A DNA stretch of 64,000 bases from Enterobacter sp. BIGb0383 (GTDB lineage: Bacteria; Pseudomonadota; Gammaproteobacteria; Enterobacterales; Enterobacteriaceae). The notes under the pieces were generated by a model, which did no database searches, was not told the DNA's origin, and worked only from the letters and a program-made list of their open reading frames with translations. Within the stretch, counting starts at the first letter, position 1. Each line of letters begins with the position of its first letter. This document shows, one piece after another, positions 9,860 through 63,555 of this stretch. A program made the position numbers and the translations under genes. The DNA lies in the NCBI RefSeq assembly GCF_003751845.1, contig NZ_RJKQ01000002.1:1460668-1524667 (forward strand), in the 5' to 3' direction.

Positions 9860-10177
9860 CTAAGCCAGCCTGTCAGATAGCTGCTTCAGCGCTTTTCTCT
9901 GCTCTTCCGTTAGCTCATCCTGCTCATTCTTTGGATAGATCAGCGCCAGATAAATTCGGCCTTTTTGGGCAAGGCTATAATAGATAACCCGAACGCCACC
10001 GCGCTTTCCCATTCCTTGCCTGCCCCAGCGGATCTTTCGAAACCCTCCGGTTCCGATAATGATGTCTCCGGCAGCAGGAGTGTCGATAAGCAATTCCTGG
10101 AAAGCCCGAAACTCATCATCCGGTAAAAGCGCCTGTCGCTGTTTACTGAAACCCTGTAGCTCAATAAAAGTAAGCAT
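9860..10177 (-). CDS. higB2: HigB-2-like RelE/ParE-superfamily toxin
   Basis: 105 aa from ATG 10177; GTGGFRKIRWGRQGMGKRGGVRVIYY...IYPKNEQDELTEEQRKALKQL closely resembles V. cholerae HigB-2 (GTGGLRKIRV...GKRGGSRIIYY...IYGKNE); toxin-first order typical of hig loci. Confidence 0.75.
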   Translation of the reverse strand: MLTFIELQGFSKQRQALLPDDEFRAFQELLIDTPAAGDIIIGTGGFRKIRWGRQGMGKRGGVRVIYYSLAQKGRIYLALIYPKNEQDELTEEQRKALKQLSDRLA

Positions 10178-10213
10178 ATCATTCCCTGATACGATGCAAC
10201 TTACACGGGATTT

Positions 10214-10262
10214 TACGTGTACAGGGTACAGCAATCAAGGCATTTCAAGTACCGGGTACACT
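10214..10262. promoter_or_regulatory. Putative operator/promoter of higB2-higA2: two GTACnGGGTACA near-palindromes ~30 bp apart
   Basis: GTGTACAGGGTACAG (10217-10231) and AGTACCGGGTACAC (10247-10261) directly upstream of the toxin start. Confidence 0.4.
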
Positions 10263-10360: not shown

Positions 10361-11578
10361 TTAGAAGGTCAGGCTAAGCTGTGCCCCGGCCCCCCAGGTT
10401 TCGTTTTCACCCACCAGACCCATCAGGTCGAGATGAACGCGGTTGAACGGCGCAAAGCCAACACCGCCGGTAAAGACGTTGCTGTCGTTGTCTTTAACAT
10501 CCGCACGGTAACCGGCGCGAACGGCAAGCCAGTCCAGGGGGCGCACTTCGGCACCGACGCCAACGTACTGGGAATTCGATTCGCTTTTAAAGCCCTTGGT
10601 TTCGGTCAGATCGCCATCGGCGCTGAGGGTAACCAGGTCATTTTGCCAGGAGACACCGGCGGTGACGACCGGTGAAATCTGGAAGGTATCGCGGAAGCCG
10701 TTGACCACTTTGGTGTCGATATCACGCGAGATCAGGTTGTGCCCGGTCAGGCCGACGCTGAAGTTTTCGCTCAGGTCAGCGGCCACACCGGCATCCACGT
10801 TAAAACCGGTATCGTCGTTACGGTAGCGGCTGTTTCTCAAATCCCCGCTGTCGTAGTTGTAGACCGGCACGCTGTAGTTATAGAGCCAGGTTTTTTGCAG
10901 CTTTGGTGTGACGCCTATCGAAACCGGCACGCCGCCGAAATCAAACTGACGGGCAACGGCAACACCATAGTCAGAAACGATGGCCGCACGACCAAATCCG
11001 GTAGAGTTGAAGTTGTCAGGATCGATACCAATCGCTGCGATCGGGTTAGCTTCAACCAGACGTATCTGGTCAATATCCCCCTGATCGATGTAAGAACTGA
11101 CGTTCGCTCTGGCCCAGGCTTTAGTGACAAACGCCACGGAAAGCACGTCGTTCGGGATACTGACGGCAATACCGCCCGCCGCTTTAGCATGGGCCGTTTT
11201 GCCTTTTAAGGATTCAAGCTTGTCGGCAAGATCGCCCGCTGCCGCTGAGATCTGCGGCAGATTAGGAGGGAAGCCGATGGAGTCGCGATAGCTATTCAGC
11301 GTATTACTGAAATTATCGATTTCGTCTTCCAGATTGTCTTTATCGCTGATCTGCGCACCGATCGCAGGCAGGATCACCGTAATATCATCGTCCGGCTTTG
11401 CCTTTGCCAGTAGTGCGGGGTTAATCAATACGCCACTGCCGTAATGTGCGGAAGCCACCCCCGTGCCCCCCATCGCATCACTGCGCGCCTCTGCCCAGGT
11501 ATTAGCTGCGCCCGCCTGTTGTGCCATAAACAAGGTTGCGCCGATAGTCACAGCCAAAAGTTTGATGTTTGTTTTCAC
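10361..11578 (-). CDS. Outer-membrane beta-barrel protein, TraF_2 (PF13729)-like, 405 aa
   Basis: Signal peptide MKTNIKLLAVTIGATLFMAQQAGAA, Gly/Asp/Asn-rich alternating beta-strand pattern, C-terminal ...LSLTF (terminal Phe); occupies the yjbL-yjbM position of E. coli. Confidence 0.5.
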   Translation of the reverse strand: MKTNIKLLAVTIGATLFMAQQAGAANTWAEARSDAMGGTGVASAHYGSGVLINPALLAKAKPDDDITVILPAIGAQISDKDNLEDEIDNFSNTLNSYRDSIGFPPNLPQISAAAGDLADKLESLKGKTAHAKAAGGIAVSIPNDVLSVAFVTKAWARANVSSYIDQGDIDQIRLVEANPIAAIGIDPDNFNSTGFGRAAIVSDYGVAVARQFDFGGVPVSIGVTPKLQKTWLYNYSVPVYNYDSGDLRNSRYRNDDTGFNVDAGVAADLSENFSVGLTGHNLISRDIDTKVVNGFRDTFQISPVVTAGVSWQNDLVTLSADGDLTETKGFKSESNSQYVGVGAEVRPLDWLAVRAGYRADVKDNDSNVFTGGVGFAPFNRVHLDLMGLVGENETWGAGAQLSLTF

Positions 11579-11913
11579 TGTTCGCCCGTTTTTTTTCAGG
11601 TAATGAATATCCTCTGCCCTTTATCGCTCAAACAGAGGAGAACCGTTGCTGTGAAAAGAGGTGAGAAAAGTCCGCATTTCTCCAGAATGACTACGCAAGC
11701 TTCCGGCTTGTTATAATTGTGACAATCCTCAATATTTATAGAAGAAGATGTTATTTTCGCCCAACTTTTCCATAAGCGTGGGCTAAAAAAATTTGCAGAG
11801 GTATTTCCGGGAGCGATGAATGCGTCGTTCATGCCTTGCCGCCCGAAACTCGGCGTTTAGCGCAGAACATGGTAAAGTGTGGGCACGATCCCCAATGCAA
11901 CCAGAGGCTGCCC

Positions 11914-25990: not shown

Positions 25991-26881
25991 ATGGCTATGG
26001 TGAGACCAAAATCGCAGAAGCTGCGCCTGCTGCTGACGCATCTGGGCCTGCTGCTCTTTATTGCGGCCATCATGTTCCCGCTGCTGATGGTGATTGCTAT
26101 CTCGCTCAGGAGCGGGAACTTTGCGACCGGAAGCCTGATCCCGGAGCAGATCTCCTGGGAGCACTGGCGTCTGGCATTAGGTTTTAGCGTTGAGCACGCT
26201 GACGGGCGGGTCACCCCGCCGCCCTTCCCGGTTCTGCTGTGGCTGTGGAACTCGGTAAAAATCGCCGGGATCACCGCGGCGGGTATCGTCACCCTCTCCA
26301 CCACCTGTGCCTACGCTTTCGCCCGTATGCGCTTTTCCGGCAAGGCGACCCTGCTGAAAGGGATGTTGATTTTCCAGATGTTCCCGGCGGTGCTTTCCCT
26401 GGTGGCGCTCTATGCCCTGTTCGACCGGCTTGGCCAGTACATTCCGTTTATTGGTCTTAATACGCACGGTGGGGTGATCTTCGCCTATCTTGGCGGTATC
26501 GCGCTGCATGTATGGACGATTAAGGGCTATTTCGAAACTATTGACGGTTCGCTGGAAGAAGCGGCGGCGCTGGATGGCGCAACGCCGTGGCAGGCCTTCA
26601 GGCTGGTATTGCTGCCGCTGTCAGTGCCGATCCTGGCTGTCGTCTTTATTCTGTCGTTTATCGCCGCCATCACCGAAGTCCCGGTGGCCTCGCTGCTGCT
26701 GCGGGACGTGGACAGCTACACCCTGGCGGTCGGGATGCAGCAATATCTGAACCCACAAAACTACCTGTGGGGCGATTTTGCCGCTGCGGCGGTACTCTCT
26801 GCCATTCCGATAACCCTGGTGTTCCTGCTGGCCCAGCGCTGGCTGGTTAATGGTCTGACGGCAGGCGGTGTGAAAGGTTAA
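25991..26881 (+). CDS. malG: Maltose ABC transporter permease MalG
   Basis: 296 aa; EAA motif [21 protein letters not shown]; same length as E. coli MalG. Confidence 0.97.
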
Positions 26882-26938
26882 GTTTCATCGTTAGAAAGCG
26901 GTAACCCTCAACTTTTATCCCTAACTTGTGATCGTTTT

Positions 26939-26968
26939 CAGGCGGCCTACGGGCCGCCCTTTTTTTAT
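26939..26968. terminator. Terminator after malG (overlaps the psiE stop on the opposite strand)
   Basis: GGCGGCC-TACG-GGCCGCC hairpin followed by TTTTTTTATT. Confidence 0.75.
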
Positions 26969-27375
26969 TCACGTTTCAGGCGTTTGGAGTTACATAGCCA
27001 GAGCGTGATCACCAGCAGCAGGATCGCTCCGGAGTAGATCAGCACATCCATCGGTGAGGTGTGATCGACGATGATCAGTCGGACGATCGCCGTGATACCG
27101 ATATAGATAAAGTAGCGCAGCGGGAAGTGATAGCCTGACTGAAAATACTTCACAATCAGCGCGATGAACTCAAAGTACAGAAAATAAACCACGAGTCCTT
27201 CCACCAGCTCATACTTGCTGGTCTGCACCGGCGCAAACAGTACGTCCGCCAGATGCAGCGTCTCTTTGCCGAGAAAGACGACCAGGATCAGCCCCAGACT
27301 CAGCAGGCCAAGGTTGAGCACGGTCTGTAGAATCGTTGAGATAAACTCAACGCGTGGACGGGGCAGCGACGTCAT
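26965..27375 (-). CDS. psiE: Phosphate-starvation-inducible protein PsiE
   Basis: 136 aa from ATG 27375 ([25 protein letters not shown]...) matching E. coli PsiE; GAGGTG RBS. Confidence 0.93.
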
Positions 27376-27493
27376 AAAACACCTCATTCTCTGTGGCTAG
27401 CCTTCTGTATAGCGCAAAGATGTGATCCAGATCTACATTTTTTGCTTATATCTTGTTCATGCTGCTCACTCGCTTACCCAGGGATGAAAAACT

Positions 27494-28006
27494 ATGATGA
27501 CGCTCCGCGATGCACGGCCGGAAGATGCCCCGCTGCTCAGTGAAATGGGCTTTACCAGCTACCGCCACCATTTTGCCCATTTATGGGTTTCGCCCGCTGA
27601 GCTGGCTACCTTTCTGAGTCAGGAGTATGGCGTTGATGCCCTTGTGCACAGCCTCGCCGGAAGTACCAGTCACTGGCTTATCGCTGCAGATAATGAGCGA
27701 CCGGTGGGTTTTGCGAAGTATTCCTGCCATCAGCCGATTGATCCACAGGGGCCAACCGGCACCCTACTCCACAAGCTCTATCTTCTGCCCGATGAGACGG
27801 GAAAAGGTTATGGCGAAGAGATCATCACCGGGGTCATTCAGCGGGCCAAAATCGAGGGCGATAGTTGGCTATGGCTGGAAGTCCTGTCCAGCAATCCCCA
27901 GGCCAGGCGTTTTTACCAGCGCCAGGGCATGGTGCATCTAAAAGACACCCTATTCAGCACCGCCTCACAACAAAGCACGCTACATATTCTGGGAATGGAA
28001 ATTTAG
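27494..28006 (+). CDS. GNAT-family N-acetyltransferase, 170 aa
   Basis: Acetyl-CoA binding motif region ...LYLLPDETGKGYGEEII... (Q/RxxGxG/A) and overall GNAT fold length. Confidence 0.7.
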   Translation: MMTLRDARPEDAPLLSEMGFTSYRHHFAHLWVSPAELATFLSQEYGVDALVHSLAGSTSHWLIAADNERPVGFAKYSCHQPIDPQGPTGTLLHKLYLLPDETGKGYGEEIITGVIQRAKIEGDSWLWLEVLSSNPQARRFYQRQGMVHLKDTLFSTASQQSTLHILGMEI

Positions 28007-28247
28007 CGACGGCGCCGCCAATAATTAAGATTATCCTTAGTAATAAATAAATGCCAACGACAAAACAATAGGAATAATAGTAAATTCCGGCCCAATATTG
28101 GCAGTTGCTGACGCGGACATCGATATATTATTATCGCCGCCCGCGTCGGCACGCTGTCAAAATATTTACGTGCGGACCACGATCGAGAAAACTATTTCGA
28201 CCTTACGTTATTAATTTATTATTCCCCGTCCAAAAGGAACTGACTCA

Positions 28248-28805
28248 ATGAAAAAAATCACTCTCGCTATCTTGCTGACCGCAGGAATGAGCAGCGGCGC
28301 GGTGCTGGCTGATGACCATACATTCTCTGTCGGCTATGCGCAGAGCAAAGTCCAGGACTTTAAAAATATTCGTGGTGTGAATCTGCAGTATCGCTATGAA
28401 TTTGACTCTCCGGTTAGCATCGTCGGTTCTTTTACCTGGATGAAAGGGGATGAGAGTGTCAGCGAGTACGATGAGCAGGACCTTATCAGCAGTCAGGTTG
28501 ACGTGGACTATTACTCACTGATGGCCGGCCCGGCTTACCGCGTTAATGACTATGTGTCCTTCTATGCCCTCGGCGGTGTTGCACATACCAAAGCCAGCGG
28601 CTCTTACCGGGTGGATTACGATGATGGCTTCACCGAAGGCGGAAGCCTTGACGGGAAATCAACCAACTTCGCCTGGGGCGCCGGTATTATCGTGAACCCG
28701 ATGACAAACTTATCCATCACTGCAGGATATGAAGGCACTAAAGCCAACCTCGATGGTAACCACAGCATCAATGGCTTTAATGTCGGCGTGGGCTATCGTT
28801 TCTGA
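28248..28805 (+). CDS. Ail/Lom/OmpX-family outer-membrane beta-barrel protein
   Basis: 185 aa, signal peptide MKKITLAILLTAGMSSGAVLA, ...GYAQSKVQDF...GFNVGVGYRF C-terminal strand typical of OmpX/PagC/Ail. Confidence 0.85.
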   Translation: MKKITLAILLTAGMSSGAVLADDHTFSVGYAQSKVQDFKNIRGVNLQYRYEFDSPVSIVGSFTWMKGDESVSEYDEQDLISSQVDVDYYSLMAGPAYRVNDYVSFYALGGVAHTKASGSYRVDYDDGFTEGGSLDGKSTNFAWGAGIIVNPMTNLSITAGYEGTKANLDGNHSINGFNVGVGYRF

Positions 28806-28812
28806 TAAATTT

Positions 28813-28837
28813 CAGCCGGGCTAATGTGCCCGGCTGC
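28813..28837 (+). terminator. Hairpin downstream of the ail-like gene
   Basis: CAGCCGGGC-TAATGTG-GCCCGGCTG perfect stem; weak T tract. Confidence 0.5.
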
Positions 28838-28874
28838 ATTGATATATGCCTGTGTGTCGAATCGAGGAAATAGA

Positions 28875-29180
28875 TTATTTCTTGTCCTTTTTATTCAAGA
28901 AATTTTCCGCCTGCGAGATTGCAATCATGGCAATCTTGACGATCAGCACACTGCTAATAAACGCCCCCATCGATCGACCAATATGGACAGAGCCTGGCAG
29001 GTATGAATCCAGCAGCGATACGGCGGTGTCCGCACCTTCAATCCCCATAAAAAATGAAGTCATAAAAATAATACATTTTTTTCGACCATCAAAATTACGC
29101 TGGATAAGCGTATAAAGCGCAGCCCCTGAGAAAGCGGCAGCGATAACCGAATCATAAAACTTATCAAAAGAGTGAATCAT
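28875..29180 (-). CDS. Holin-like small membrane protein (3 TM segments, charged C-tail), 101 aa
   Basis: ATG 29180 with AAGGGG RBS; hydrophobic segments SVIAAAFSGAALYTLI / CIIFMTSFFMGI / MGAFISSVLIVKIAMIAI and C-terminal NKKDKK; directly downstream of the chitinase gene. Confidence 0.55.
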   Translation of the reverse strand: MIHSFDKFYDSVIAAAFSGAALYTLIQRNFDGRKKCIIFMTSFFMGIEGADTAVSLLDSYLPGSVHIGRSMGAFISSVLIVKIAMIAISQAENFLNKKDKK

Positions 29181-29285
29181 CTTAGGGCCCCTTCGCTTTA
29201 TATAAAACGGCCAGGAAAATGAGTACAAACAGCAACCCTGTGCTTCATCTGGCGCAGAAAACGCTGAGGGATCAAGGCAGGAGGA

Positions 29286-30392
29286 TCAGCAGGGATTCCA
29301 GAGTCTGCTCGCTCTTTCCGGGGTCCAGAAGATATCGGAGTCGTGCGGCATGACGCAGATCCACTCTTTCCCGTTCCAGCAAACAACGTCGGCATCGGTG
29401 TAGTACAATCCCGGCCTCCATTCAGGCACATCCGGCACCGGAGGCGGAGTCATTTTTCCCCCCATCAGGCCGCCGTAACGTCGGATAAATTCCCAGCTAT
29501 AGGCCTCGCCACCGGCGCTTGTGCCCGCATCCCAGTTGACCGACCATGCCATTAATCCACGAATCGATAGGCCTTTCGCTTTCAGGCGCGCCAGTGCGTT
29601 TTTCATATCCTGAGGCTCGACAACATAGCCCGTTGCCGCTGCATCACTGTTTGCTGGCAATCCGATAATCAGTTTTTCATGAGGGATCTGAATAAAATTG
29701 CGGGTCCCGGTAAGCAGACTTTCGGTCAGGTAGTAGAGGAAATTTTCCTTCGTGGCATGGCTGTTTTGTACAATCCAGCCCACATCATCAACCAGCACAC
29801 CCTCACCGCCCTGGTTATAATATTGCGGCACCATAACGTCATAATACCCTTCCAGCGCATTAATCCAGGACACATACTCACTCTCAAGGGTCAGAAAAGG
29901 AAATGCCGGGCTCATGCTGATCATAAAACGTTGCCCAAGGGCGCGGTAGTAATCCTTGACCATCCGCAAAGCAGCAGGGATCACCGTCCTGTTGTCCGCC
30001 GCAGTCATCGCCTTTTTCTCGAGAGCGATATCCAGACCATCAAAGCTGAATTTATCGACCAGCGCCTTAATCCGCGTCGCCAGCGCCAGCTCATCTCCGG
30101 CATGTAATTCGATATGCGCTTCTGCACCGCCCAAAGAGATGATGACCTTGCGCCCCTGATTGTGCAGTACTTCAATTTGCTGACGAAACTCAGACTCCGT
30201 TCCTTTGTACGGTTTAAAGTCAGGAACAGGATCCTCACTGCCGTCGATGACGTTCATAAAAGCGACGGCGATCACATTATATTCCTGCGGGATATCCGTG
30301 AGCGTCACTTCCCTGGATTTGCCCCCGCAGCAACCCTGTTCTGATGAGGATGGCCAGTTATGCCAGAATCCCATCATAATATTTTCATTCAT
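29286..30392 (-). CDS. GH18 chitinase with C-terminal chitin-binding (CBM5/12-like) domain, no signal peptide, 368 aa
   Basis: GH18 catalytic-region motif FDGLDIALE (DGxDxDxE variant), ...SLGG...; C-terminal WRPGLYYTDADVVCWNGKEWICVM aromatic module; N-terminus MNENIMMGFWHNWPSS lacks a Sec signal; ATG 30392 with GAGG RBS (ORF-track start is TTG). Confidence 0.75.
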   Translation of the reverse strand: MNENIMMGFWHNWPSSSEQGCCGGKSREVTLTDIPQEYNVIAVAFMNVIDGSEDPVPDFKPYKGTESEFRQQIEVLHNQGRKVIISLGGAEAHIELHAGDELALATRIKALVDKFSFDGLDIALEKKAMTAADNRTVIPAALRMVKDYYRALGQRFMISMSPAFPFLTLESEYVSWINALEGYYDVMVPQYYNQGGEGVLVDDVGWIVQNSHATKENFLYYLTESLLTGTRNFIQIPHEKLIIGLPANSDAAATGYVVEPQDMKNALARLKAKGLSIRGLMAWSVNWDAGTSAGGEAYSWEFIRRYGGLMGGKMTPPPVPDVPEWRPGLYYTDADVVCWNGKEWICVMPHDSDIFWTPERASRLWNPC

Positions 30393-30646
30393 ATAGAGCC
30401 TCAAATAGAATTATTTATTTTACATTTGTATTTAACGCCTTTAATCCTGACATCAGATTTTTGATGAAGTCCAGATGATTATTCCTCGATATGCAGCATA
30501 AGCCAAATTCAAAAAAGACAATTGGCCAGTGCAAAAATTAGCAGAAGAATAAAAAATAATCTTTTTCATTTTGCTTTAATATTCGTTTATTGATTTTCCT
30601 TTCGACATCACATCATCATGACCGGAATCTATTTTTTTCCATATAA

Positions 30647-31528
30647 ATGAGGGTCATAAAATTGCTGACATCCCGAACTCTTGAATCATTTATAGAAGTC
30701 GCAAAAAAAAAGAATATAAAAACCGCATCCACATCTCTTAATCTGACCGCTTCACCCGTCTCCCGAAGGATAAAAATTCTTGAAAACTGGGTCGGCTTTA
30801 AACTTTTTGTCAGAATGCAAAACGATTTTGTACTGACGGAGAAGGGGCGCGCCTTTTATGAGGATATCCTTCCCTGCCATGAACAAATGGCCGTTCTTGA
30901 GAAGACCTACAAGAGTAAAAAATGCGATGAAAATAAAATAAAATCGCTAAAAATCGGCATAGAACTGCTGAGTCAGTCGGTGATAAAGAAGTTTATCGAA
31001 TATTTCAGAGGAAATAAAGAAGTCAATCATGTGCTATATTATGAATGCAATAAAGACACTGCGCTTGATAAACTACTGGCAGAGGACATTGAATTATTGT
31101 TCTCGCACAGGGTTATTCGTCATGAACGCATCTCTTTTATGGAACTCAACTCAGAACCTTTATGGCTAACGTACCATAACGATCTCGAAAGAAAAATAAA
31201 AGATAAAAGCATCGAAACCATTTTCATCATCGAACAAAAAACTATTGATCAGGATAACCTGAATAAAATATCGAACTATATTTGCACGTCATACCCTAAT
31301 GCCGACATCCTCATTGTTAATAGTTTCATTCCCTATCTTAACCTGATTGAATCAGGCAATGCCGCTTTTATTATTAATGAAACATCCCCTTTAGCCAACA
31401 AACAACACAAAAACACTCCAGTACCCTCACCCATGAATAAAGTGAAGGTCAATATTAGTCTGAAAACGCATGTTTATTTTCTTAAAGACAATGAAGATAT
31501 CTCAAGACAGGTTGCCGAGATAGTGTAA
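30647..31528 (+). CDS. LysR-family transcriptional regulator (divergent from the chitinase gene)
   Basis: N-terminal LysR HTH ...ASTSLNLTASPVSRRIKILENWVGFKLFVR...; 293 aa; AT-rich codon usage unlike flanking genes. Confidence 0.8.
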   Translation: MRVIKLLTSRTLESFIEVAKKKNIKTASTSLNLTASPVSRRIKILENWVGFKLFVRMQNDFVLTEKGRAFYEDILPCHEQMAVLEKTYKSKKCDENKIKSLKIGIELLSQSVIKKFIEYFRGNKEVNHVLYYECNKDTALDKLLAEDIELLFSHRVIRHERISFMELNSEPLWLTYHNDLERKIKDKSIETIFIIEQKTIDQDNLNKISNYICTSYPNADILIVNSFIPYLNLIESGNAAFIINETSPLANKQHKNTPVPSPMNKVKVNISLKTHVYFLKDNEDISRQVAEIV

Positions 31529-31544
31529 AAGACGCCATAACGGC

Positions 31545-31568
31545 ATCTGCCCCACTTCCGGGGCAGAT
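31545..31568. terminator. Bidirectional hairpin terminator between the lysR-like gene and yjbH
   Basis: ATCTGCCCC-ACTTCC-GGGGCAGAT perfect 9-bp stem. Confidence 0.6.
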
Positions 31569-31578
31569 ACCGTATTCG

Positions 31579-33675
31579 TTAGCGGAAATTGATACTCTTA
31601 TCGCTGGTGAGATCATAGAGGTCAAATTTACGACCCAGTTTCTGGCCACCGTCACGCGTCAGCGGCGTCCAGCCAATCGCCGCCCGACTGCGGGTCGGGC
31701 CGGACGTGAAGAGATCCAGCGGCACGGAAACGTAGACGCCTTTGGTAAAATCGCCTTCCCCGTACTGTTCCGCCGAGACGTTGGTGATAGTGGCGTAAGC
31801 GCCAACCACTACGCCGCTGTCAAAGTGCTTCATCACCTCCAGAGTGCCGCCCTTATCACCCGCCAGATACTGCCCTACACTCGCTTTAATCAAGACATTA
31901 TCCGCGAAGGAAGGATTCCAGTAAGCGGTAAAGTGGCCGGTTTTCACGCTGTAGTCAGTGAATTTCATCATCTCTTTCGCACTGTGCCAGTCACGCTGTT
32001 TCACATAGTTGGCATCAATGCCGAAGGCCCAGTTACCGTCTACCGGACGCCACAGCAGTTCAGCTCCCGCGCCGCCGTACATGGTTTCCAGATAGCCGCC
32101 GTAAACCTGCCCGTAAAAGTTATTCCCCAGATACTGGAAATAGTTGGCCTGCAGGTTATTCACGTAAATGTCGTTACCTACATACTCGCGCACGTAGGTA
32201 CGCACACGCGGCAGGGCGGAATCCGTTGGCGGGTTGGTATAGTTAAATTTACCGTAGTTGTTTTTCAGGTTGGCAAAAAGACTACCGGTGGTCAGCAGAT
32301 GGTCGGTCACCCACCAGTCCGCAGTGCCCATAACCCCGAGCTGGTACATATAGAAGCTTTCCGGTCCACCGATAGACTGGTTAAGGACCGGATCAAAATG
32401 GTAATCGAAGCTTTTCTTATCGATATACCAGCCCTGCTCCGTCGTATCCGGGACAACAGGCGTCACGCGCTGCTGCACCAGTTCGGTTTCATGCCCCAGC
32501 GGCTCACCTTCCAGATGGCGCTTCAGACTATCCACGTCCACCTCCGTGGTCACCTGAGGCATATTCAGGCGGTTCTCGGTAATGCGCAGCGTGTGAACCC
32601 CGTCCGGCAGATCGTTCATCATGATGCGCTTCGCACGTTCGATGCCTTCCTGCGACTCACGATATTTCACCTGCTCACCGGTGACGTACAGCGTGTGATC
32701 GTTAACTTCCACTTTCGGATCGGCGAGCCCCGCGTTGTATTTCAGCAGGGTCAACTGATTAGCTACTACCGTGTGCTGCAGGATGGCATCCTGCTCCTGA
32801 GGCTGGTACTGCGGACGGGCATTATCGTTATAGCTCGGGCGTAAATCGTTGAAGTTGGTACGCAAGGTGAAGCCAAACATCACCGTATTGCCCCGCTCGT
32901 AACTCAGGTTGACGTCCGCCCAGTCGGCCACCCGGTAGATGGCCCCGACGTTAAAATTGCTGCGCTGCGGGAGCTTGCCGGCAAAGTCCTGCTGATAGTT
33001 GTTGCCTTCATACTCCAGCTTCAGGCGCAGCGGCTGCCACGGCGTCTGATACTCTACCCCGCCAAACAGCGAAGCGGGACCATGAAACATCTGGCTGCTG
33101 TCGATAGAGCCGGCCTGACCGTAGCTGTTGTCACGGTAGCAGTACTTTTGGCTGTAGCTGCACAGCGGGTTAGAAATATTGCCAGACGTTCCCAGATAGC
33201 CCCAGCCCAGACCGAGAGAGAAATCAAACGGTCCCCAGGCTTTATTCGCCACGATATACTCGGCATCGAACAGGCCAGTACCGCCGATATCGCGCGCGCC
33301 GACGGCAACCTGCGGCAGCCAGTATCCCTCTTCCCACAGCCGCAGTTTGAGGTCGAAAGCTTTATCTTTATAGCTCTGATTGCCGGAGAAGGCGTCAACG
33401 GAGCTGTACTGGCGGGTTCGCACATCCGTATAGCGTAGGGAGGTTTCCAGCCACGGGAACAGCTGGATCGACGCGGAATAGTAGCGATACTGATCGTTAT
33501 CGCGATAGTTAAGGCTCAGCTCGCCGTCTCGTGCCATCCGCGCGGTCGGCGTCTGCAGCAGGCCGACTCCACCGAAATCAGACTGAGAGGGGCCCACCGG
33601 AGCCGGATACGTCTCAGCATGGCAGGCGACGCTTACACCCAGCGCCAGCAGACTATAGAGGTATGTTTTCTTCAT
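31579..33675 (-). CDS. yjbH: YjbH outer-membrane protein (GfcD paralog) of the yjbEFGH exopolysaccharide operon
   Basis: 698 aa with signal peptide [20 protein letters not shown]; conserved gene order yjbE-F-G-H next to pgi as in E. coli. Confidence 0.9.
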
Positions 33676-45633: not shown

Positions 45634-45660
45634 TGCCGGATGGCGTTTGCGCCATCCGGT
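45634..45660. repeat. REP-like palindromic hairpin between the convergent BASS gene and higA
   Basis: GCCGGATGGCG-TTTG-CGCCATCCGGT (resembles the enterobacterial REP core GCCGGATG...CATCCGGC). Confidence 0.5.
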
Positions 45661-46085
45661 TATCGGGAACGAGGTTCGATAAACACCTCAGCCGATACGT
45701 TAAAACGTTCAGCTAAAGCTCTGATATGATCGACGGTCAGATTGCGCTCTCCGCTGAGAATGCGGCTTACCAGCGACCGTTGGCCGATCTCATTCGTAAA
45801 TGAAGACTGATTTAATCCGTACTGATCCATCAGGACGCGAAGAGCCGCCACGCCACGCGGCAGCGCCTCAATACGCGCATTAAAGGCGGCGAGTTCGGGG
45901 TCATTGTTTTCATAACGGTCAATTTTCGCCATCAGCAATTCGATCAATGGGCTATCAGGGGCCTGCTCCATCAGACGTTCAATCACGTCCAGCGCCTGCT
46001 CATAATCTTGTTTGCGGGTACTGCGTCCTAAAAAGGGAATCAGCGTCACCAGTTCATCAGCCGCTTTAATCGCATGATTAATCAT
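45660..46085 (-). CDS. higA: HigA antitoxin (HTH, XRE family)
   Basis: 141 aa; ...RVLMDQYGLNQSSFTNEIGQRSLVSRILSGERNLTVDHIRALAERFNVSAEVFIE aligns with E. coli HigA (...RTLMDQYGLTLSDLPEIGSKSMVSRVLSGKRKLTLEHAKKLATRFGISPALFID). Confidence 0.85.
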   Translation of the reverse strand: MINHAIKAADELVTLIPFLGRSTRKQDYEQALDVIERLMEQAPDSPLIELLMAKIDRYENNDPELAAFNARIEALPRGVAALRVLMDQYGLNQSSFTNEIGQRSLVSRILSGERNLTVDHIRALAERFNVSAEVFIEPRSR

Positions 46086-46393
46086 TCTTTTGTCTCCCGG
46101 TAAAACCTCACCAGTTTGTCATACACCGCATGGGGAACGATGTGCTTCACAAAAATCCGCCCATACTCAAAATCGGCAAAAAACAGCAGTCGCAGATTAT
46201 TTCCCCCGACATTAATTACCCACCATTTGTCCCTGAACTTCATTCTGTCCAGGCTGGGAAAATCATGCCTCAGCTCATCCGGACTTTCATAAGATGTGCT
46301 TTTGAGGATCTTGTAAACGGCGTCCAGGGCCAGGGCATCATTAGGAAAACCTCTTGCCGCATCGTTGAACGGCCTCCTTGATATAACATGCAT
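46082..46393 (-). CDS. higB: HigB mRNA-interferase toxin (RelE/ParE superfamily)
   Basis: 103 aa; MHVISRRPFNDAARGFPN...FPSLDRMKFRDKWWVINVGGNNLRLL... aligns with E. coli HigB (MHLITQKALKDAAEKYPQ...FPSLDNFKYLDKHYVFNVGGNELRVV); 4-nt overlap with higA. Confidence 0.85.
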   Translation of the reverse strand: MHVISRRPFNDAARGFPNDALALDAVYKILKSTSYESPDELRHDFPSLDRMKFRDKWWVINVGGNNLRLLFFADFEYGRIFVKHIVPHAVYDKLVRFYRETKE

Positions 46394-47913: not shown

Positions 47914-48285
47914 TCAGATTTGTGCGTCGGGGCGAAAAGAAATGCTCTGGCCTACCGTTAATGAAACCGGTTTTCCCAGCCTGACCAGCATCGTCACCAG
48001 CGCATCCAGGGTAAATTTGCTGGTTTTAAGATTCACGACATCAGATACCCGGGGCCGTGAGATATCAAGTTTTAACGCAGCATCCGCCTGTCGGAGGTTG
48101 TTGTCGGCTATCCATCCTGAGATTTCCTGCATCAGCTGCTGTTTAAGCACTAACAGCTGGCGAACCTCTTTTTCTGCACCCGCTAAAAGCTGCTGCGCCT
48201 GAGATTCATCAAACCCCAGTTCGCTAAAAATATTAGCGCCCGCAGGTGTGATATGGCGAATACCATTGTCCATTTTTGACTTCAT
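47914..48285 (-). CDS. XRE-family HTH antitoxin (COG5606-type partner of Gp49 toxins)
   Basis: 123 aa; HTH ...[40 protein letters not shown]...; 4-nt overlap with the upstream toxin gene. Confidence 0.7.
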
Positions 48286-48638
48286 GTGTGACTCCTGTGA
48301 TGCTGCATCACGGCCTGGTAACGTGATTTTCCGATGGCTTTGTCCCTGCCAGACGTACGCTGCGATTTTTTATTAAAACAGTGCAGGATATAAATTGCCT
48401 CGTCCAGTCGGGCCAGATAGAACACTCGCCAGGAACCGACCTCATCACGCAACCGAATTTCGACAGTGCCCGGTCCGATTTCCGTCATAGGTTTCCAGTC
48501 CTCGGCCCCAAGGCCCGCCTGAATCCGATGAAGTTGGTATCCAGCTTGTCGGCGGGGCCCTTCAGGAAAAGCAAGCAAATCCTCGTATGACGACCCCATC
48601 CAGATAATCGGTTTTGGTACTGATCTTATCGAAAGCAT
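48282..48638 (-). CDS. Gp49-like (PF05973/COG4679) RelE/ParE-superfamily toxin
   Basis: 118 aa; ...PKPIIWMGSSYEDLLAFPEG...WRVFYLARLDEAIYILHCFNKKSQRTSGRDKAIGKSRY characteristic of phage Gp49-type addiction toxins; toxin-first order with XRE antitoxin. Confidence 0.7.
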   Translation of the reverse strand: MLSIRSVPKPIIWMGSSYEDLLAFPEGPRRQAGYQLHRIQAGLGAEDWKPMTEIGPGTVEIRLRDEVGSWRVFYLARLDEAIYILHCFNKKSQRTSGRDKAIGKSRYQAVMQHHRSHT

Positions 48639-63077: not shown

Positions 63078-63485
63078 TTACGAAGCGTTACGGCGAGTTT
63101 TTTCGCCATCGGCAAAAGTGAGCAGCACTTCACTATCGCTCAGAGGAGACTGACTGGAGATAACCTGAGGATACTTTGCTCTGCCGCCCGAGGCGCCAAA
63201 GATAACTTCCAGAATCGCACGCTCCTCAACCTGTGACAGGCCACCCTCATTCATTTCCAGCGCGTGCGCCAGGATCCCAAACTGTTTTCGTCCGAAGAAC
63301 GGAGTCCATATTGAACGAGGCATAAGCTGTTCGATAAGATCGTACACCAGTTTTTCTGCCTGAAAGAATTCGGCGACCAATATCCGCTGGTTGCTGAAGG
63401 TTCGGGAACCGGAAACCTGTTGCCCGGTAGTGGTATTACGTACAACTATCCGGTTTTTATACATCTGAACATACAAAATGATCAT
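63078..63485 (-). CDS. Hypothetical 135-aa protein resembling an N-terminal fragment of the MreB/actin fold
   Basis: ATG 63485 with AAGGA RBS; by-eye local similarity to MreB: ...RILVAEFFQAEKLVYDLIEQ (MreB VIADFFVTEKMLQHFIKQ) and ...GGLSQVEERAILEVIFGASGGRA (MreB [22 protein letters not shown]); lacks the phosphate-1 loop. Confidence 0.4.
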   Translation of the reverse strand: MIILYVQMYKNRIVVRNTTTGQQVSGSRTFSNQRILVAEFFQAEKLVYDLIEQLMPRSIWTPFFGRKQFGILAHALEMNEGGLSQVEERAILEVIFGASGGRAKYPQVISSQSPLSDSEVLLTFADGEKTRRNAS

Positions 63486-63527
63486 TGCGATTTCCTTTCT
63501 CAGTCCGTGATAAAGCCGAAAACGCAA

Positions 63528-63555
63528 AAAGGCCATCCTTTCGGATGGCCTTCTG
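63528..63555 (-). terminator. rrn operon terminator downstream of 5S rRNA
   Basis: AGGCCATCC-TTTC-GGATGGCCT hairpin followed on the minus strand by TTTTTGCGTTTT. Confidence 0.8.

Follow-up and report, generated by a model that had tools for sequence, protein, structure and literature searches.

A LysR–GH18–holin islet of Enterobacter sp. BIGb0383 may be a reduced derivative of a type 10 secretion-type cassette

Results

A LysR regulator, a ChiC-like gene and a holin gene lie between psiE and yjbH

We analyzed a 64-kb stretch of DNA from Enterobacter sp. BIGb0383, hereafter called the window, which carries an islet (positions 28875-31528) of three genes encoding a LysR-family regulator, a glycoside hydrolase family 18 (GH18) protein and a holin. 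NCBI already names these genes "LysR family regulator," "chitinase" and "putative phage holin." An initial annotation of the islet proposed that it follows the logic of a type 10 secretion system (T10SS), a class of systems defined by a "minimal protein pair" consisting of one holin plus one peptidoglycan hydrolase (PMC13284979). The gene arrangement described there, wherein a LysR gene is divergent from a 368-aa GH18 gene with a CBM5/12 module and a holin gene follows, was recovered in full.

The GH18 gene (29286-30392, minus strand), identified by Pfam and by a match to a PDB structure, is separated from the downstream holin gene (28875-29180, minus strand, 101 aa) by a spacer of 105 bp (29181..29285, minus strand). 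A terminator scan of this spacer detected none, and thus the two genes are probably co-transcribed. The holin gene has a ribosome-binding site of its own, AAGGGG, located 8 nt before the ATG. Upstream of the GH18 gene, a divergent control region of 254 bp (30393..30646) leads to the LysR gene (30647..31528, plus strand), whose product is 293 aa long from the ATG at 30647; NCBI calls a 288-aa protein starting at 30662.

Two descriptions of the site required correction. The islet had been called low in GC, which holds for the holin gene (42%), the LysR gene (37%) and the intergenic region (29%), but not for the GH18 gene (52%, versus 55% for the whole window). It had also been said to replace xylE. 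This is inaccurate because the islet occupies the gap between psiE and yjbH, which in Escherichia coli holds a single gene for a small periplasmic protein, and not the xylE site, which lies between malG and psiE in that species.

The GH18 protein is leaderless and has an altered active site

The GH18 protein matched Pfam models Glyco_hydro_18 (31.5 bits, cut-off 29.6) and CBM_5_12 (31.3 bits, cut-off 26.2), the latter at residues 324 to 365 (29298..29423, minus strand). Its closest solved structure is the catalytic domain of Serratia marcescens ChiC1 (4AXN, E 1e-115), and it is 56% identical to full-length Serratia ChiC across 88% of the query. A catalytic domain spanning residues 1 to ~310 is joined by a short Pro-rich linker to the CBM5/12 module, wherein the conserved aromatic residues are kept when aligned with ChiC-family CBMs. 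The Fn3 domain of ChiC is missing, and this short form is common to about nine related clusters. As had been proposed, neither a Sec nor a Tat signal is present, in that no hydrophobic stretch occurs in residues 1 to 35, no twin-arginine motif was found, and the first barrel strand (IMMGFWHNW) begins at residue 5.

To place the active site in context, the protein was aligned with 120 homologues. The Asp preceding the catalytic Glu of the DxDxE motif is kept in 116 of 116 homologues outside one small clade and is replaced by Ala in all five members of that clade, which comprises the window protein and homologues P0001, P0002, P0007 and P0009 (the DxAxE clade). The window motif reads DGLDIALE (residues 118-125; 30018..30041, minus strand). 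In the alignment with 4AXN, Ala123 (codon GCT, 30024-30026) is equivalent to D139 of ChiC and D142 of ChiB, and Glu125 to E141 of ChiC. Three further changes in the window protein fall at columns that are otherwise 100% invariant, namely Y21C (30330-30332), E163A (29904-29906) and T282A (29547-29549). The site of E163A is equivalent to Glu201, a substrate-cleft residue of Listeria ChiA (PMC7334433). Thr282Ala and an Ile129Met change are present in all five clade members, and Tyr21Cys and Glu163Ala are not. The relatives within the clade are more degenerate, with DIALD (Glu to Asp at the catalytic acid) in P0002/L011, whereas P0007, P0009 and the protein of locus L026 have NIALD and are also missing several of the invariant Trp residues. 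The window protein keeps the SxGG motif (SLGG, residues 86-89) and the QxYN motif (Q190-Y-Y192-N193). Compared with the ChiC subfamily, it therefore has the homologous GH18 TIM barrel but neither a complete DxDxE motif nor the GH18-Fn3-CBM5/12 domain order.

The Asp next to the Glu of DxDxE stabilizes the oxazolinium intermediate, and mutation of DxDxE residues in ChiB reduces activity dramatically (PMC7334433). Judged from the substitutions above, catalysis by the window protein is likely impaired, and the gene most likely encodes a chitin-binding ChiC-like protein of weak or no activity rather than a competent chitinase. The name "chitinase" is made doubtful by DxAxE and by the changes at other invariant sites.

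The holin belongs to a short subfamily found outside prophages

The product of the small ORF matched Pfam Phage_holin_8 (39.6 bits, cut-off 26.4; E 6.5e-10) and PHROG 198, annotated "holin" (E 4.9e-16). Hydropathy indicates hydrophobic segments at residues ~10-26, 35-58 and 67-88. An AlphaFold2 model, which is of low confidence (pLDDT 61) and was used for the helix count alone, places helices at residues 2-26, 33-60 and 66-99. The C-terminal tail is charged and Lys-rich (NKKDKK). These features agree with the prior assignment of a holin-like protein with three predicted helices and a charged tail. The further description of the holin as ChiW-like does not hold, as Phage_holin_8 is the sole Pfam match at E <=0.1 and the Serratia ChiW protein is a holin of the holin-3 (lambda S) family (PMC4259817).

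When clusters at 50% identity were searched exhaustively with a profile for this holin, just 104 had E <=1e-3. Nineteen clusters had E <1e-10 and consist mostly of proteins of ~100 aa; the weaker matches are mostly 110 to 140 aa long. Two phage relatives that were examined are ~124 to 130 aa in length, carry an N-terminal extension and reside in phage lysis cassettes. The short-subfamily holins whose context was examined all lie outside prophages. On a Serratia entomophila plasmid, the holin gene is accompanied by a second holin gene, a lysozyme gene and a TcA-like gene; on a Serratia liquefaciens plasmid, by genes for an Rz-like protein, a lysozyme and TcA; and on Pantoea stewartii pDSJ09, by genes for a lysozyme and an RHS protein. 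A Serratia proteamaculans plasmid has a short-subfamily holin cassette adjoining TcA/sepA, and Enterobacter asburiae carries another cassette of holin and lysozyme genes. On pADAP, a holin and a lysozyme are encoded 5′ of sepA (PMC12890329). Cassettes of a holin and a hydrolase beside exoprotein genes are the genomic signature of T10SS-type release (PMC10847048, PMC13284979). The fact that the closest relatives of the window holin reside in nonphage cassettes with a lysozyme, beside Tc toxin or chitinolytic genes, indicates that the link of the islet to type 10 secretion is real.

A prophage lysis gene was considered as an explanation for the small ORF and was rejected. The islet is flanked by yjbH, psiE and mal genes and not by phage genes, and the nearest phage homologues are just 30 to 33% identical.

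A separate observation concerns a Pantoea sp. OXWO6B1 plasmid (locus L019, 8001-16318), where no lysozyme was called within the 8 kb that follow a short-subfamily holin gene. This holin gene is upstream of genes for methyltransferase-like proteins, Big_1 (invasin/intimin-type) proteins and a lipoxygenase, and may represent another orphan-holin context. A profile search of genome contigs with a second holin alignment matched 262 stretches, none of which was confirmed, and a literature search on PF16931 (Phage_holin_8) returned nothing relevant, giving only an unrelated phage genome paper.

Complete cassettes encode a lysozyme and a lytic polysaccharide monooxygenase

No gene for a peptidoglycan hydrolase or a spanin was found in a Pfam scan of 20 small or medium ORFs of the window, and tblastn searches of the window with a cassette-type lysozyme and a spanin gave no match. 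The initial annotation had likewise seen no such gene, and had suggested that the missing partner is a ChiX-type L-Ala-D-Glu endopeptidase encoded elsewhere, or that the holin alone or a housekeeping hydrolase is sufficient. Related loci point to a different partner and to its loss.

The plasmid NZ_CP043343.1 of Enterobacter huaxiensis (L024) encodes a GH18 protein with an intact DIDLE motif, a lytic polysaccharide monooxygenase (LPMO) of domain order LPMO10-Fn3-CBM5/12, a 79-aa ORF, the holin, a LysR regulator and a lysozyme, wherein the LysR gene is divergent from that for the lysozyme, a signal-less Phage_lysozyme protein of 147 aa. A complete set like that of L024 is present in the chromosome of Enterobacter hormaechei B17-3 (L029), where the insertion sequences IS66, IS3 and IS5 lie between the holin and lysozyme genes. 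The metagenomic contig L013 carries the same element as L029. In L003, L010, L013, L024 and L029, an LPMO10 gene is located between the GH18 and holin genes. The 79-aa ORF, which has no Pfam match, is conserved between the LPMO and holin genes of the complete cassettes (L024:5695-5934; L029:5737-5976) and is not found in the window. A limited literature search turned up no account of a cassette in which a Phage_holin_8 holin and a GH24 lysozyme are joined by a LysR regulator and two leaderless proteins, a ChiC-type GH18 protein and an LPMO10.

The LPMO10 proteins of related cassettes begin with a leader of 15 hydrophilic residues, M-x-x-I-I-S-x-K-K-x-Q-P-x-L-R, placed directly before HGH[IMV]FSPKSR (genes at L003:9544-10917, L006:11131-12498, L013:8935-10338, L024:4212-5606 and L010:11136-11783). 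The absence of a Sec signal from this leader means that both cargo proteins of the cassette are leaderless. Because His1 has to be the free N-terminus of an LPMO, these proteins must be processed after the Arg by some protease. In Yersinia proxima (L006 and L007, 10001-12498), the same short GH18 and LPMO10 pair occurs with no holin or LysR gene, beside a HemolysinCabind gene and the kdp operon, which indicates that the cargo pair also travels alone.

The complete cassettes L024 and L029, together with a lysozyme remnant in L003, identify the ancestral partner as a GH24 muramidase rather than a ChiX-type endopeptidase, and they argue that the hydrolase has been lost rather than moved. A permissive tblastn search for LPMO or lysozyme remnants in the window, L010, L011, L013 and L026 returned CBM-to-CBM cross-matches only. 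A cluster look-up with four cassette lysozymes and a short L022 ORF found no BIGb0383 member and was uninformative.

The yjbH–psiE site preserves a deletion series

The same chromosomal site holds related islets in several states of reduction. In L003, L004 and L005, the LysR gene is followed by a GH18 gene with an intact motif (69% identical to that of the window), the LPMO and holin genes and then a lysozyme remnant. In L003 this remnant (11382-11597) shares 47% identity with residues 6 to 77 of the cassette lysozyme. It is interrupted by stop codons, one of which occupies the position of the Glu conserved in KEFEG, and its 3′ half is gone. In L010 the GH18 gene is intact, the LPMO gene is internally deleted, the holin gene is kept and no lysozyme remnant exists. 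L011 resembles the window in having GH18, holin and ail genes, but its LysR gene has a nonsense codon, its GH18 motif is DIALD and it lacks the gene for a GNAT acetyltransferase that is present in the window. In L026 and L027 the LPMO gene is absent, the GH18 gene is very degenerate and the holin stop codon is lost, giving a 158-aa read-through product, and psiE follows directly.

The window itself has no trace of the LPMO or lysozyme genes. As judged by comparison among these loci, both have been deleted from its islet, with the hydrolase demonstrably lost and not relocated as a unit. The window, L011 and L026 fall into one clade, as they have A123, M129, A282 and the loss of the LPMO gene in common, and this grouping is also supported by their higher holin and LysR identities.

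The regulator and the promoter of the operon

The regulator matched Pfam HTH_1 (E 2e-14) and gave no Pfam LysR_substrate match, and NCBIfam LysR models reach to about residue 240 at scores far below their cut-offs. Orthologues at the same site (L003, L010, L011 and L026) are 62 to 75% identical to it, and the LysR proteins of the complete cassettes L024 and L029 are 33 to 36% identical. A contig search with a cassette LysR protein returned one real relative, that of E. hormaechei B17-3 (L029), along with 62 matches to the HTH only. Among the latter, Serratia loci, which are uncertain candidates for chiR, matched at residues 1 to 101 only, with 29 to 32% identity, and no LPMO or GH18 gene was detected nearby with the queries used.

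In the control region, a promoter scan placed a sigma-70-like promoter ahead of the GH18 gene, TTGGCT-17-AATAAT (30506..30478, minus strand). In a five-lineage alignment, TTGG (-35 element), AATAAT (-10 element) and a block AAATCAATAAA..A.ATTAAAG are all invariant even though coding dS exceeds 1.5, and upstream blocks are conserved. A LysR box was also sought in the intergenic region, where only an imperfect AATA-N6-TATT dyad was seen, and we claim nothing from it.

Both genes of the operon remain under purifying selection

Ratios of nonsynonymous to synonymous substitution rates (dN/dS) were estimated pairwise by the Nei-Gojobori method, and all differ from neutrality at p <1e-5. For the GH18 gene, the window yields 0.18 against L011 (dS 0.54) and 0.17 against L026, and values within the DxAxE clade range from 0.17 to 0.20, versus 0.05 to 0.11 in clades with an intact motif. 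Constraint on this gene is thus relaxed ~2.5-fold relative to the intact-motif clades. The catalytic domain alone gives 0.17 to 0.19 in the DxAxE clade and 0.07 for L003 versus L010, and the CBM5/12 module gives 0.17 to 0.18. The ratio for the holin gene is 0.13 against both L011 and L026 (p <1e-8 versus neutrality) and 0.13 to 0.16 overall, and that for the LysR gene is 0.05 to 0.16 across all comparisons. Because the Asp-to-Ala change and the LPMO deletion predate the divergences within the clade, the GH18 and holin genes must have stayed open and constrained after these losses. Selection on both ORFs and on their promoter makes it probable that LysR-controlled expression of the pair continues.

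In the same genome pairs (window 26965-33675 versus L003 and L026), islet genes have dS values of 1.5 to 1.6 and above, and the flanking genes psiE, malE and yjbH have values of 0.4 to 0.8. Possible reasons for the higher islet dS are old alleles, recombination at the site or weak codon-usage constraint in AT-rich genes.

Discussion

The locus by itself cannot be a type 10 secretion system

In S. marcescens, ChiC is leaderless and needs ChiW and ChiX for its secretion (PMC4259817). The Serratia holin exports the hydrolase and not the chitinase, and ChiW is not needed for ChiC to reach the periplasm (PMC4259817). Both holin and hydrolase are essential in Serratia and in Salmonella (PMC4259817, PMC10109510, PMC13284979). 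The suggestion that the holin alone suffices is therefore without Gram-negative precedent. At the BIGb0383 locus a holin gene is present, as is an adjacent cargo gene in a nonprophage setting, but no signal-less hydrolase to pair with the holin was found among the window ORFs scanned. The locus thus fails the definition of a T10SS in cis, and by itself it cannot be such a system. The proposal of type 10 secretion logic stands with regard to ancestry and to the leaderless cargo, but not with regard to the defining pair, which is incomplete.

We consider it very likely that the islet has a T10SS-type ancestry and has since lost components. That it is specifically a reduced and chromosomally fixed derivative of a mobile chitinolytic cassette built on a holin and a muramidase is the reading we favor, if by a modest measure. 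In the ancestral set, a LysR regulator dedicated to the cassette would have accompanied two leaderless proteins, a ChiC-type GH18 protein and an LPMO10, together with a Phage_holin_8 holin and a GH24 lysozyme that has no signal peptide. BIGb0383 would retain just the LysR gene and, in a probable operon, the two genes for the GH18 protein and the holin; the LPMO and lysozyme genes would have been deleted, and the GH18 protein would have lost its oxazolinium-stabilizing Asp along with three other invariant residues. The regulator presumably activates the operon. The GH18 protein could leave the cell only if the holin breached the inner membrane and if, in addition, a hydrolase came from elsewhere or the expressing cells died. 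Continued release that depends on the holin is doubtful.

Several observations weigh against this favored reading. The hydrolase search covered the window, and a partner hydrolase is possibly encoded elsewhere in the BIGb0383 genome. Purifying selection on a holin gene that lacks a hydrolase in cis is unexplained if the islet is purely a remnant. The deeper pairwise dN/dS values are rough because islet dS is high (1.5-1.6). The decay seen in sister lineages, namely the LysR stop codon of L011 and the lost holin stop codon and degenerate GH18 gene of L026, argues that the function may be dispensable. Finally, the D161A variant of the ChiC-type Listeria ChiA kept ~30% of its activity on colloidal chitin (PMC7334433), and for this reason we call the window enzyme impaired and not dead.

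Alternative explanations

It could be argued instead that the islet is a working T10SS-like system that secretes active chitinase, with its hydrolase encoded elsewhere or unneeded. Such a system would account for holin, GH18 and LysR ORFs that are intact and under purifying selection, for the conserved promoter, for a cargo protein that is leaderless as is Serratia ChiC (PMC4259817), and for a holin subfamily that otherwise occurs in T10SS-like cassettes. The retention of the holin gene in five chromosomal lineages, none of which has an intact lysozyme gene, is also consistent with it. We nevertheless judge it unlikely, given that the 64-kb window lacks the defining hydrolase, which was lost rather than relocated as a unit, that Serratia and Salmonella need both proteins and the role of the holin is to export the hydrolase (PMC4259817, PMC10109510, PMC13284979), and that the catalytic Asp is replaced and the LPMO partner deleted. 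An opposite view, to which we assign a similarly low probability, holds that the islet is a functionless relic whose genes are unused and heading for deletion, wherein low dN/dS values mostly reflect past selection. Every lineage has indeed suffered stepwise losses (the lysozyme in L003; the LPMO in L010; the LPMO and an intact motif in the window, L011 and L026; the LysR gene in L011; the holin stop codon in L026), and constraint on the GH18 gene is ~2.5-fold weaker than in intact clades. However, A123, M129, A282 and the LPMO deletion are common to three lineages that are 0.5 to 1.6 dS apart and whose ORFs are open with dN/dS values of 0.13 to 0.20, and the promoter hexamers are conserved. 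Neutral drift across that distance would have brought many stop codons.

The altered GH18 protein might also have been recruited as the cell-wall partner of the holin, acting like a lysozyme on the GlcNAc-MurNAc backbone in place of the lost GH24 enzyme. A leaderless glycosidase gene followed by a holin gene mimics a holin-endolysin pair, and both genes have been under selection since the lysozyme was lost. Plant-type GH18 enzymes such as hevamine, which are related to the ChiC type, show lysozyme activity, and this precedent speaks for such a role. Yet the change that defines the clade removes the residue used in the substrate-assisted mechanism, on which lysozyme-type cleavage by GH18 enzymes also depends. 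In addition, the retained CBM5/12 module binds chitin and not peptidoglycan, and ChiC-type enzymes are not known to act on peptidoglycan. We regard this recruitment as highly improbable.

Comparison with known systems

Among characterized systems, that of S. marcescens (chiR, chiWXYZ and the cargo proteins ChiA, ChiB, ChiC and Cbp21; PMC4259817) resembles the islet in its LysR-type regulator, phage-derived holin, leaderless ChiC-type cargo (56% identity) and nonprophage chromosomal setting, and Cbp21 is matched by the LPMO of the cassette from which the islet would derive. Beyond the holin family, the differences lie in the hydrolase, which is the M15 L-Ala-D-Glu endopeptidase ChiX in Serratia and a GH24 lysozyme in the ancestral cassette, and in the window locus itself, which lacks spanins, a hydrolase and an LPMO, and whose cargo lacks Fn3, carries DxAxE and is encoded within the operon of the holin. 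The islet of Salmonella Typhimurium (STM0014 LysR, chiH holin, chiP muramidase, chiR and chiA; PMC10109510, PMC13284979) joins a holin, a signal-less muramidase and a GH18 protein as the ancestral cassette does. In both, a LysR gene adjoins the holin gene and spanins are absent. Unlike the window islet, it keeps the muramidase. Its master regulator is the ToxR-like ChiR, and the LysR protein STM0014 is without effect on expression or secretion. Its ChiA protein is of a different GH18 type from that of the window.

Tc-toxin cassettes (Serratia pADAP-type, P. stewartii pDSJ09 and Yersinia; PMC12890329, PMC10847048) encode holins of the same short Phage_holin_8 subfamily (36-48% identity) and are likewise nonphage and located directly beside genes for large leaderless exoproteins. 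In contrast with the window islet, they keep the GH24 lysozyme, often with a second holin and an Rz-like protein, and their cargo proteins are Tc or RHS toxins rather than chitinolytic proteins. The Yersinia entomophaga system, which has been studied experimentally, also differs from the window locus, in that it has the PepB endopeptidase and its cargo is freed by lysis of a subpopulation.

For the GH18 protein, a parallel exists in the catalytically inactive GH18 chi-lectins (for example, mammalian YKL-40/CHI3L1), wherein the barrel is under selection despite replacement of DxDxE, as in the window protein. In YKL-40, too, the Asp that adjoins the former catalytic Glu is replaced by Ala. Unlike the chi-lectins, the window protein keeps the catalytic Glu and is bacterial, with a ChiC-type fold that lacks the insertion domain, and its loss of activity is only predicted.

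Implications

How T10SS cargo crosses each layer of the envelope is still debated. Under the favored reading of the islet as a reduced cassette, a single chromosomal site would provide a natural deletion series in which successive losses removed the hydrolase, the LPMO and the catalytic Asp as the holin and GH18 genes stayed under purifying selection. This series allows one to ask whether a T10SS holin can function without its cognate hydrolase. The GH18 protein is a candidate bacterial pseudo-chitinase, and the labels "chitinase" and "secretion system" both overstate the sequence support available for the window.

A more speculative and rather improbable extension is that the holin and the DxAxE ChiC-like protein constitute a two-gene release module without a dedicated hydrolase, wherein a LysR-triggered subpopulation of cells frees a leaderless, chitin-binding pseudo-chitinase from the cytoplasm by means of the holin alone. 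If true, such a module would be a Gram-negative counterpart of clostridial holin-only toxin export. The role of the protein would then be to adhere to chitin or to sense it, as on the surfaces of nematodes, fungi or insects, given that the strain name BIGb0383 suggests a Caenorhabditis elegans-associated collection.

Neighboring genes and other features of the window

ORF listing and profile searches give the gene order across 25991-33675 as malG (plus strand), psiE (minus), a GNAT acetyltransferase gene (plus), ail (plus), holin (minus), GH18 (minus), LysR (plus) and yjbH (minus). The GNAT gene (27494-28006, plus strand) and the gene for an Ail/Lom (PagC-like) outer-membrane protein (28248-28805, plus strand; annotated "resistance to complement killing"), both identified with Pfam and NCBIfam, separate the holin gene from psiE. 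The ail gene is present and the GNAT gene absent in L011, and neither gene occurs in L003, L010 or L026. By this distribution, the two genes are later insertions where L003 has the lysozyme remnant, and are outside the cassette.

Between the convergent holin and ail genes, a GC-rich hairpin with a perfect stem of 9 bp, CAGCCGGGC-N6-GCCCGGCTG, was read from the sequence at 28813..28836. It is likely to be a bidirectional terminator that marks the end of the operon, and it was not flagged by a consensus terminator scan because it lacks a T-run.

Elsewhere, the window contains three toxin-antitoxin-like modules, which include a HigB toxin with an HTH_3 protein (45660-46393), a Gp49-like protein with an HTH_37 protein (47914-48638) and a RelE-like ORF (9860-10234). 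A 152-aa ORF at 63078-63536 on the minus strand has no Pfam match at E <=1e-3.

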